Assembly (NCBI GenBank): GCA_039588275.1
Contig: JBDHAC010000029.1
Coordinates: forward strand, 1 to 51,175
Length of the DNA stretch: 51,175 nucleotides
Direction of reading: 5' to 3'
DNA from: Gemmatimonadota bacterium
Lineage (GTDB): Bacteria > Gemmatimonadota > Gemmatimonadetes > Palauibacterales > Palauibacteraceae
Shown: in pieces, positions 35,738-38,469 of the stretch
Layout: every line of letters begins with the position of its first letter
Numbering within the stretch: position 1 is the first letter of the stretch
Made by a program: the position numbers and the translations under genes
The notes under the pieces: generated by a model
Told to the model about the DNA's origin: nothing
The model's database searches: none
The model's input: only the letters and a program-made list of their open reading frames with translations

Positions 35738-37165
35738 GTGACGACACAGCAACGGCGAGGCGATCAGTTGGACCACAAGCAAGCTCTCCAGGACAAGATC
35801 GAGGGCCGGGATGCGCGCGTAGGCGTCCTCGGGCTCGGGTACGTCGGGCTACCCGTGGCCGTCGCGTTCGCCGAGGCGGGCTTCTCGACTCTGGGCTTCG
35901 ACGTCGACGCATCGGTCGTCGAGCTGATTCAACGCGGCGCGTCACACATCGGCGATGTCTCGGCCGGACGCGTCGGGCGCCTGATCCAATCGAGCGCGCT
36001 CGAGGCCACCACCGATTTCGACCGCCTCGCCGAGATGGACGCGATCGTCATCTGCGTGCCGACTCCCCTGTCCAAGACCGGTGATCCCGATGTCTCGTAT
36101 ATCGTCCGGGCCGTGGATGAGGTCGTGCGGCACTTGCGACCGGGTCAGCTCGTAATCCTCGAGTCGACGACCTATCCGGGTACTACGCGCGAGCTCGTAC
36201 AGCCCAGCCTCGAGGCGTCGGGGCTGGCGGTCGGGCGCGATTGCTTCCTCGCGTTCAGCCCAGAGCGCGTCGATCCCGGCAATCAGGACTTCGATATCAA
36301 GAACACGCCCAAGGTGGTCGGCGGGCTGACCGGCGACTGCCACGAGCTGGCCGCGCAGCTTTATCGCAGCGTGATCGACACCGTGGTGGAGGTGTCTTCG
36401 CCCGAGGCGGCCGAGCTCACGAAGATCCTCGAAAACACGTTTCGGGCCGTGAACATCGGCCTCGTCAACGAGATGGCGGTGATCGCGGACCGGCTCGGGA
36501 TCGATATCTGGGAGGTGGTGGACGCGGCGTCGACGAAGCCGTACGGGTACATGCGGTTCACACCCGGCCCGGGGCTGGGGGGTCACTGCATCCCCATCGA
36601 CCCTCAGTACCTCGCGTGGAAGATGCGGACCCTCGAGTACAAGACGCGGTTCATCGAGCTCGCGGCGGAAATCAATGCCGAGATGCCGCGATATGTAGTC
36701 GCGAAGATCGCGGAGGCCCTGAACCGCGATCGGAAGCCGGTGAACGGTAGCCGCATCCTGCTGCTCGGCGTGTCCTACAAGCCCGACGTCGACGATACGC
36801 GCGAGAGTCCGGCGCTCGACATCCTCGAGCTTCTGCGCGAGATGGGAGCCACGGTCGAGTATCACGACCCGTACGTTTCGGCGCTGACGCTCGATTCGGG
36901 AGCGGCGGAGTCGGTTCCGCTCACCGCCGAGGTGCTGTCGGCCACTGACGCCGTCGTCATCACGGCCGACCACCGCGAGCTGGACTACGACCTGGTTCTG
37001 GAGCACGCGCGGGTCGTCGTGGACCCGCGGGACGGCCTACGCGGGCGATCGGGCAAGGCCACGATTTACCCGATCGCGGGCCCGCCCCGGCGCGACGGCC
37101 CTCCAGCCACCAGGAGCGCGGCCGACACGGCCGCTACCGACGCGACGGCGGACGTCGCCGTCTGA
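35738..37165 (+). CDS. Nucleotide-sugar (UDP-N-acetylhexosamine-type) dehydrogenase
   Basis: GLGYVGLP, ICVPTP, ESTTYPGTT, FSPERVDPG, GGHCIPIDP, YKPDVDDTRESP. Confidence 0.93.
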   Translation: MTTQQRRGDQLDHKQALQDKIEGRDARVGVLGLGYVGLPVAVAFAEAGFSTLGFDVDASVVELIQRGASHIGDVSAGRVGRLIQSSALEATTDFDRLAEMDAIVICVPTPLSKTGDPDVSYIVRAVDEVVRHLRPGQLVILESTTYPGTTRELVQPSLEASGLAVGRDCFLAFSPERVDPGNQDFDIKNTPKVVGGLTGDCHELAAQLYRSVIDTVVEVSSPEAAELTKILENTFRAVNIGLVNEMAVIADRLGIDIWEVVDAASTKPYGYMRFTPGPGLGGHCIPIDPQYLAWKMRTLEYKTRFIELAAEINAEMPRYVVAKIAEALNRDRKPVNGSRILLLGVSYKPDVDDTRESPALDILELLREMGATVEYHDPYVSALTLDSGAAESVPLTAEVLSATDAVVITADHRELDYDLVLEHARVVVDPRDGLRGRSGKATIYPIAGPPRRDGPPATRSAADTAATDATADVAV

Positions 37166-37192
37166 CCGCTGCGGAAGCTGCGGAAGACCCGG

Positions 37193-37358
37193 GACGCCCC
37201 CTGGGGCGGGGTACCCCTTCCCTCGCGACTGAAGCTCCGCGTGGGGACATACGGAGGTCCCGTCCCTGACCCGTCTAGTGTCTGATCCTATCGGGTCACA
37301 ACCAGCGCGGATCTAGCATCGCTCCCGAAGGGGTACCCCCGCCGAGGAAGGGGGCGTC
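37193..37358 (-). repeat. Structured intergenic element, copy A (candidate ncRNA or MITE-like unit)
   Basis: Shares a 26-bp and a 23-bp block with copy B in inverted orientation. Closed by its own long stem (GACGCCCCC/GGGGGCGTC and GGGGTACCCCTTC/GAAGGGGTACCCC). The strand is inferred from G-U pairs. Confidence 0.7.
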
Positions 37359-37581
37359 GATCCCTCCAGAGAGATTGCCAGCGCGAGGTGTACGCGAGCC
37401 CGGCGTCTATACTGCTGATAGTACAGCGACCCCTCCGCCCGCTGCGGCACCACCGTCATCTGGATGGAGCGATCTCCCGGTGAGCCCGCTGCGAATACCG
37501 CCGCGTAAGGTGACGGGGTCGACCCCCCGGATGCAGATGCCCGGACCAGGTAATACGGCTCGGTCGGACCATAGTCCCTCT

Positions 37582-37731
37582 GCCGTCGGGAGGGTATGCC
37601 TTCCCGAGCGACGCTAGATCCGCGCTGGGCGATGGGCTGACGGATCTGCCTCTAGACAAAAGAGGTGGAGGGTCGCACTTGTTGCGCCGCGGAGCTTCAG
37701 TCGCGAGGGAAGGCATGCCCTCGCGATCGGC
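37582..37731 (+). repeat. Structured intergenic element, copy B (candidate ncRNA or MITE-like unit)
   Basis: GAGCGACGCTAGATCCGCGCTGG-N13-GGATC-N5-CTAGAC-N30-CGCGGAGCTTCAGTCGCGAGGGAAGG, closed by GAGGGTATGCCTTCCC/GGGAAGGCATGCCCTC. Confidence 0.7.
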
Positions 37732-37734
37732 TTC

Positions 37735-38469
37735 TTAGTGGTCGATCGGCACCGCGCTCGGGGCACCGATCGGCCGCGTGGCGAATTCCGACAGGACCCG
37801 CGCCGATTTGAGCGTCATCGAAGCGACGTGCATGAAGGGGCTAGTCATCTCACGGGCTACCGGTCTCGCACCCTGCAGTGCGGCACCGAACTCCCGCGCT
37901 CCGTCGAACGCTTCGATCTCGGTGAACGCCCGCCCGATCTCACCCAGAAAATGCGCGTCAGACCCGGCGGCCATGGCAAGCCCTCGCGCACGGGCCGCAC
38001 GCTTCGCGGCTCGGTTCCAGATCGGCAAGAAGGCGCGTGCATTGTGTGCCTCGACCACGTCGGCGACGGCGAGGGCCCGACGGGCACGCAGGATCGGATT
38101 CCTCGGGTAGGCATACGGATGCGGCGCGTAGATGATGCCGCCCTGATCACGGATCCTGTCCACGACTTCCTCCAGAGGCAGCCGCATCGGGATGGGCTCT
38201 GACAGGAAGAGCCCTATGAGCTCGGTCCGGCAGCGGCAGCGGATTTCCTCTCCCACGATGACGAGGTCCGGGTCCGCTTCCCAAGCCAGGAGCGCCCCTT
38301 CTATCGTGCCGTGGTCCGTAACCGCGACGCGATCCAGGCCTACTTCGCGCGCTCGCTCGACCAGTTGGAGCGGTTCGGTGGCCGCGTCCTTTGAGTGATG
38401 AGTATGTGCGTGAAGATCGACGCGCAGACGCTTGCCGGTTTCCATCCGTGCGGCTTCCCCTGAATGCAT
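37735..38469 (-). CDS. PHP-domain metal-dependent phosphoesterase
   Basis: DLHAHTHHSKD, AVTDH, GEEI, APHP, GSDAH. Alternative start 38445. Confidence 0.9.
   Translation of the reverse strand: MHSGEAARMETGKRLRVDLHAHTHHSKDAATEPLQLVERAREVGLDRVAVTDHGTIEGALLAWEADPDLVIVGEEIRCRCRTELIGLFLSEPIPMRLPLEEVVDRIRDQGGIIYAPHPYAYPRNPILRARRALAVADVVEAHNARAFLPIWNRAAKRAARARGLAMAAGSDAHFLGEIGRAFTEIEAFDGAREFGAALQGARPVAREMTSPFMHVASMTLKSARVLSEFATRPIGAPSAVPIDH

Follow-up and report, generated by a model that had tools for sequence, protein, structure and literature searches.

Hairpin elements with a REPIN-like layout and attC-like strand logic behind core genes of a Gemmatimonadota genus

Two inverted hairpins in the window (the whole stretch of DNA analysed here, 51,175 nt) belong to a family of elements that is REPIN-like in layout and history and attC-like in strand logic, and that fails the defining tests of both. 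As far as found, the family is confined to one Gemmatimonadota genus, where it is low in copy number and apparently undescribed. With moderate confidence, we interpret it as a family of orphan REPIN-type non-autonomous hairpin elements whose transposase would be encoded elsewhere. This interpretation is based on the inverted conserved arms, the variable spacer of fixed length, the covariation between the arms, the strand bias, the copies that appear to postdate speciation and the nesting of units. Among the observations against it, the copy number is tens of times below that of typical REPIN families, and the strong conservation at fixed loci is unexpected for an orphaned, decaying family.

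The inverted pair in the window

The genome holding the window (G000, 4.1 Mb) was compared with two further genomes of the same genus (G001 and G002), all three being 84-91% complete. The pair, units A and B, is located between two convergent genes and consists of the following features.

35738..37165, plus strand: gene of the UDP-glucose/GDP-mannose dehydrogenase family, left flank
37193..37358, minus strand: unit A, whole hairpin (outer stem, core and centre), antisense to the UDP-sugar dehydrogenase gene and 27 bp past its stop codon
37216..37241, minus strand: 3' core arm of unit A and start of its outer stem, a perfect inverted repeat with 37688-37713
37242..37304, minus strand: centre of unit A, a part that is unstructured, length-constrained and drifting in sequence throughout the family
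37305..37324, minus strand: 5' core arm of unit A, with the local variant GCTAG where the family has CGTAG or CGTTG
37371..37483, plus strand: frameshifted 3' remnant of an accessory gene (CarboxypepD_reg domain, 356 aa and intact in G002), 75.7% over 103 nt
37582..37731, plus strand: unit B, whole hairpin, antisense to the PHP gene and 3 bp from its stop codon
37606..37625, plus strand: 5' core arm of unit B, A type by comparison with G002
37626..37687, plus strand: centre of unit B
37688..37713, plus strand: 3' core arm of unit B and start of its outer stem, A type
37735..38445, minus strand: PHP-domain gene, right flank, convergent

The repeats that a sequence-only reading had described were confirmed in every position: 37216-37241 and 37688-37713 form a perfect 26-bp inverted repeat, 37302-37324 and 37606-37628 are identical at 22 of 23 positions, and the full two-copy pattern has one match per strand, with variable parts of 13, 5 and 30 nt in B (plus) and 13, 5 and 31 nt in A (minus). 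Only three perfect inverted repeats of at least 20 bp, 60-1500 bp apart, were found in the whole of G000, one of which is the A/B pair; the remaining two are situated at C7:38002-38276 and C27:18970-19272. Both units are long hairpins that fold far beyond shuffled sequence. The strands proposed earlier as the better folding ones, minus for A and plus for B, agree with the z scores against shuffles (-4.2 on minus vs -4.0 on plus for A, a small margin, and -7.3 on plus vs -5.3 on minus for B). The spacer of about 220 bp between the units contains the broken end of the accessory gene. No known RNA pattern had been recognised in the pair, and Rfam likewise gave no hit in the window at gathering score (best E of 3 in 37100-37800), and a search for the hammerhead core pattern gave none. 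A contig of run X1 is identical to 37439-37701 and may derive from the source sample.

Family size and range

Pattern, profile and covariance model searches revealed at least 10 full copies in G000, at least 11 in G001 and at least 15 in G002, i.e. 36 in total. The exact words of A and B occur in G000 at the window locus only. A first covariance model, built from 15 copies, recovered the remaining 21 full ones in G001 and G002, and a looser pattern and profile added partial copies in G000 to its ten full ones.

Outside the genus, covariance models were scored on the best 55 or best 21 candidates per genome. Among the best candidates listed per genome, the 15-copy model had no match in 58 other relatives and the 36-copy model found nothing convincing in 142 genomes from the rest of the order, six of which gave weak partial matches (E 3e-4 to 9e-4). 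A pattern scan of a species-level genome collection returned 14 loci, of which 13 lay in two Gemmatimonadota records and repeated known loci; the single weak match, in Variovorax, was taken as chance. None of the viral contigs scanned carried the strict A/B pattern, and none of the metagenome contigs the two-arm or the one-arm pattern. Since these scans are samples and rely on exact matches, the range reads as "not found elsewhere" and not as "absent". Within a partial collection of literature, no description of the family was found among papers on Gemmatimonad repetitive extragenic sequences or on REPs with cargo genes and HUH enzymes, and those on REP hotspots at orthologous loci held nothing relevant.

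Structure of the hairpin

A unit is about 150 bp long and consists of a 5' core GAGCGACCGTWGRYSYGCGC, a centre and a 3' core CGCGSRGCTYCCGYGTCGCGAG (consensus sequences), enclosed by an outer stem of about 25-30 bp whose sequence differs from locus to locus. The two arms, of 45-50 bp, are unequal and differ in a fixed way, which results in a conserved internal loop and tandem GA. Over the 36 copies, 84% of the cells of the drawn structure are paired and 19 of the 31 pairs change on both sides, so that the compensatory change first noticed between A and B extends to the family alignment. The covariation score was reached by none of 500 shuffles and by no slid register. Related sequences may inflate this score, and in the outermost columns of the alignment the register is partly lost.

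At the foot of the inner stem, GTAG or GTTG is present in 30 of the 36 copies (GTAG 19, GTTG 11; CTAG, as in A and B, 3), together with a conserved bulge. This word is enclosed by the long stem and lies away from its outer foot. The arms are not self-palindromic REPs, as their folding on themselves reached z<-2 against shuffles in 0/36 and 3/36, and the mirror tetranucleotide in the 3' arm was seen once among 36.

The centre measures 54-61 nt in all 36 copies. On its own it does not fold (z -0.2 and -0.4), on the folding strand it holds more G than C in 30/36 with an AT skew of just 0.03, and centres of paralogs are about as alike as the shuffled baseline (0.48 vs 0.45).

Several details proposed as general from the two copies of the window turned out to be local. 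The inner GGATC..CTAGAC motif, searched as GGAYC-N5-CTRG, and the word GCTAGATCC required for a second fold each occur in only 3/36 members, so neither the motif nor the second fold is a property of the family. The "invariant scaffold" is a local variant, and the inner motif and GCTAG (3/36) both characterise the A/B sub-clade.

These results also bear on the suggestion that the pair encodes a non-coding RNA whose constant scaffold would carry programmable inserts as guide or cargo. Such an RNA would be in keeping with the tandem GA, the conserved internal loops, the fixed length of the centre and the covariation. However, the variable part is a single centre that does not fold, is inherited vertically and drifts about neutrally; the inner motif is rare, no sigma-70-like promoter or terminator was found at the units, and a comparison of neighbouring genes gave no partner gene common to the loci. 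Possible targets of the variable segments amounted to chance: 39 centres compared with their own genome gave 13-22-nt matches beyond themselves and one ortholog, and for the 570-bp region the matches to phages and plasmids (29-30 nt, E 0.04-0.05) fell outside the centres. We consider this explanation extremely improbable.

Position and strand

Of 39 units (36 full and 3 partial), 32 have the end of a gene at their 3' side and 7 the start of one, according to our own gene caller. At the level of loci, 17 of 20 are positioned directly after a stop codon. The units follow core genes and are often inverted; where a gene ends at a unit, the unit runs antisense to it, usually at a distance of 9-120 nt from the stop. 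The locus labels secA, proS, ybeY, mgtE, mraZ, mcm, degP and lytR are presumptive and were assigned from the translations.

The strand antisense to the upstream gene forms the better arm duplex in 34 of the 36 copies, with RNA and DNA parameters alike, and in the outer stem this strand holds 68 G-T against 26 A-C combinations. The earlier description of a structured element with strand-specific folding is supported for the family. As the antisense strand is the better folding one, this argues against a plain 3'-UTR hairpin and suggests use as single-stranded DNA.

Evolution of the units

Most units have a counterpart at the orthologous position in one or both of the other species, and in the unit tree the loci form clades (with bootstrap not settled). 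Distances between orthologs (5, 9 and 8 locus pairs) were 0.05-0.18 for the cores, 0.34-0.61 for 4-fold sites and 0.49-0.82 for the centres, the conservation of the cores being somewhat inflated because copies with damaged arms are detected less readily. The length of the centre changes by 0-4 nt between orthologs, compared with about 20% for other intergenic regions. Taken together, the distances and length changes indicate that the arms and the loop length are constrained while the loop sequence is free. Hypermutation of the centre is not indicated, its divergence being 1.0-1.4 times the 4-fold distance, and concerted evolution across loci is not supported, with no species-wide homogenisation (p 0.41).

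Among paralogs, the outer stem is 0.59-0.61 identical and the core 0.77-0.79, the tips being least conserved. This pattern is relevant to the possibility that the units are MITEs of a DDE insertion sequence, with the arms as imperfect terminal repeats and the centre as a leftover of the transposase gene. Two long imperfect inverted arms with fixed differences agree with such an origin, and size and position are MITE-like (PMC3733652). Against it, precisely the tips are weakly conserved and covary with their partner, no target duplication was seen, and the genome collection and metagenome contigs yielded no longer version of the unit carrying an enzyme. A MITE origin is very unlikely.

The tree suggests that whole units reached new loci by copying once the species had separated. 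G0_ybeY and G0_mcm2 are 85.8% identical over 155 nt including the centre and are sisters in the tree (100/94), and G1_degP and G1_c42 (sisters, 100/99) are a second example of such copying inside a single lineage. Several units have additional 5' or 3' arms stacked next to them; there is also a unit nested within another and a chimeric unit composed of two types. At L169:4129-4313 (G001:C23), an outward-facing pair of 3' arms surrounds fused centres, both inner arms being lost. C|T junctions at stacked arms (3/7 by eye) are too common in C-rich sequence to count. Loss was observed as well: G000 carries stubs or decayed copies at four loci, and deletion often leaves nothing in the place of a unit. 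The losses seen have their ends at short words common to both sides, a pattern like that of slippage. At two loci, A/B in G000 and c41a/c41b, the partners of a pair have rare core variants in common.

The position of the units and their conservation could also mean that, whatever their origin, they now serve mainly as cis-elements of the host. Either an RNA hairpin at the 3' end or a DNA site of fixed geometry bound by a protein would then terminate, stabilise or insulate the transcripts of core genes. The location of most loci just behind a stop codon and the constraint on the arms, locus by locus and free of species-wide homogenisation, are in line with this, and comparable roles are listed for REPs (PMC6006769, PMC3733652). 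On the other hand, the mRNA-sense strand is the weaker fold, no U-tract terminator is present, units can be deleted with nothing in their place, other genera do with short gaps or overlapping genes at the window locus, and copying and nesting would be left unexplained. A mainly host-serving role is in our view distinctly unlikely.

History of the A/B pair

In G002, the equivalent two units enclose the intact 356-aa CarboxypepD_reg gene, which stands between unmatched cores. In the window this gene is reduced to its frameshifted 3' end, the remainder being deleted from near the foot of hairpin A. In G001 the interval is 65 bp: the tip of A passes into the outer arm of B at a 7-mer common to both, and a deletion is the simplest explanation. 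In other genera no unit is present at this locus, where the genes overlap or are 9-93 bp apart; these genera also have no matching outer stem there, and insertion into a pre-existing terminator is not supported.

Units A and B are sister clades (100/100). The outer stem and centre of B are orthologous to those of B in G002 (0.84/0.91/0.56), whereas its cores are of A type, with values of 1.0 and 0.91 towards A of G002 and of 0.80 and 0.87 towards B of G002. Because the cores are A-type in spite of an orthologous stem and centre, the common scaffold of the window pair is likely the product of local conversion between neighbouring inverted copies, in either direction. The pair is likely a local inverted duplication, with cores that were later homogenised and the wreck of an accessory gene in between.

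Gene turnover beside the units

Junctions holding a unit differ in gene content from G000 in 12 of 23 cases, compared with 21 of 108 other junctions; these counts depend on our own gene calls, the junctions are not independent, and a part of the controls are junctions at the opposite end of a cargo. One locus carries, between inverted units or their stubs, a different gene in each of the three species, namely a methyltransferase, a TPR protein and a third ORF. In G000 this methyltransferase has another location, next to which no unit was detected. The link between units and gene turnover is an association, and long gaps behind stop codons may just tolerate insertions.

Two other repeats or structures were noticed in passing. 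At G000:C20:26670-26910 (L031), a second small repeat lies beside the secA-like locus and has relatives on C14, C35, C26 and C25. A highly conserved structured leader is located upstream of a btuF-like gene (G000:C34:32203-32693, L082, L073) and is a candidate cobalamin riboswitch.

The turnover raises the question whether the units are attC-like sites of a dispersed cassette system, in which the bottom strand would fold, a recombinase would recognise its unpaired features, and accessory genes would be inserted or exchanged 5' of a unit or between inverted units. Sites of the attC type follow a stop codon, fold better on the bottom strand by means of G-T pairs and have a G-rich variable loop (PMC5027507), and the units share this logic together with conserved unpaired features and an association with accessory genes. 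The differing unit junctions, the three genes at one locus and the rare core variants of pair partners point in the same direction. An IntI-like tyrosine recombinase is encoded in G001 (C18, L122:624-1466) and G002 (C196, L123:759-1613), both with NF040815 and TIGR02249 below cut-off. However, this gene is followed by a short attC-like hairpin of its own in the same direction and by cassette-like genes, no unit is near, and it was not found in G000, although one such attC-like site is present there at C43 near 950. The RYYYAAC/GTTRRRY cores are absent from all 72 strand tests, as is AAC..GTT alone. The units further differ from attC in being inverted, with neither an array in direct orientation nor an adjoining integrase, and in following core genes rather than cassettes. 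The intact gene of G002 stands between cores that do not match, the losses resemble slippage, and long intergenic gaps would accept insertions anyway. We regard such a cassette system as unlikely, though of greater interest, and the stronger proposal, that the units are attachment sites of an undescribed chromosome-wide system comparable to an integron without an array or AAC cores, as doubtful. In that system, single-strand hairpins defined by their structure would stand behind core genes, and the fixed loop length and matched core variants would let a trans-acting enzyme swap genes between inverted partners.

Search for an enzyme

The sequence-only reading had suggested a hairpin substrate of an enzyme encoded elsewhere, and the behaviour of the family fits this. 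Of the enzyme genes it named, IS110, IS200/RAYT and RT were looked for, and none lies next to a unit. No RAYT was detected in the three genomes, which are 84-91% complete (best E of NF047646 0.07), and a profile from 27 RAYTs of the phylum recovered only a degenerate Y1 gene in them. RAYT-like genes are present in 67 of 401 genomes of the phylum, and no family member adjoins any of 30 RAYT loci (best 20 bits). IS110 had no match in G000 and three in G001 and G002, none of them near a unit; reverse transcriptases and tyrosine recombinases beside a unit were absent from all three genomes.

The single Y1 gene of each genome of the genus lacks the first His of HUH and has no visible catalytic Tyr. 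In 25 of 26 aligned copies (28 loci supplied) the first HUH position is Arg. The gene occurs in 55 of 114 genomes of the taxonomic family, with no unit beside it. In G000 (L032:1366-1839, C74) this degenerate IS200-fold gene has DRVH for HUH, is single-copy and lies between a phosphomannomutase-like gene and a Cys/Met metabolism gene. It is likely a domesticated, inactive transposase, to judge from its residues and distribution.

In another family of the phylum, the RAYT genes (L252, L253) have GC-rich REPs on either side, whose first bases are GGAG/GGGG-ATCCGCG in place of GTAG. A kinship of the units with these REPs through the common word GATCCGCG was considered and dropped, the word being judged too simple.

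Comparison with known systems

REPINs consist of two inverted arms and have spacers that fall into length classes, with no two identical (PMC3337134). Fixed length and unique spacers, which had been taken as a mark against REPINs, are therefore part of their own description. The family resembles the REPINs of Pseudomonas fluorescens SBW25 in being extragenic and lineage-specific, in its inverted conserved arms around a variable spacer of fixed length, and in its nested and tandem copies, decay and loss; REPINs insert into or next to other REPINs (PMC3116915), and their populations shrink after loss of the RAYT (bioRxiv 10.1101/2021.07.10.451892). In contrast to the SBW25 elements, the arms are unequal, 45-50 bp long and not self-palindromic, the centre is unstructured (REPIN spacers are said to form a hairpin, PMC3337134), there are 10-15 copies instead of hundreds, the units are long-lived at orthologous loci, and no RAYT was found.

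For TnpA-REP, the determinants are GTAG, a bulge and C|T cleavage (PMC8266576). The E. coli REP/BIME system with TnpA-REP (group 2) shares with the units a GTAG-like word at the foot of a stem, a conserved bulge, a single-strand folding bias and a position behind genes. It differs in its loop of a few bases, against about 58 nt in the family, and in that the word of the family varies and is enclosed by a further stem of 25-30 bp. TIRtrons and REPtrons also have an inverted repeat pair flanking one gene, while the genes enclosed here are ordinary accessory genes and the units are unlike the flanks of the 30 phylum RAYT genes. TIRtrons and atypical hairpins are described in PMC3733652 and PMC6006769, and the parts of these sources covered here make no mention of Gemmatimonadota.

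Implications

Under the preferred REPIN-type reading, the predicted fold of one DNA strand is a long stem whose core is conserved and asymmetric. This folded strand would be cut and rejoined by a transposase that is encoded at a different locus and is likely an HUH enzyme of RAYT type, and further stop codons would in this way acquire a copy of the unit behind them. We infer that the units act as single-stranded DNA, that an enzyme of this kind was later lost, and that selection at each locus, for a host role or for continued use, keeps the arms.

As a REPIN-like family, the units are modest news, i.e. an undescribed repeat in a little-studied phylum. About 20 loci can be traced over three species, which makes constraint measurable part by part. 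That arms and loop length are kept while the loop sequence is free, with gene turnover alongside, bears on the persistence of REPINs and on their benefit to the host. If it were true that these hairpins drive gene exchange, they would represent a new kind of distributed gene-capture system.
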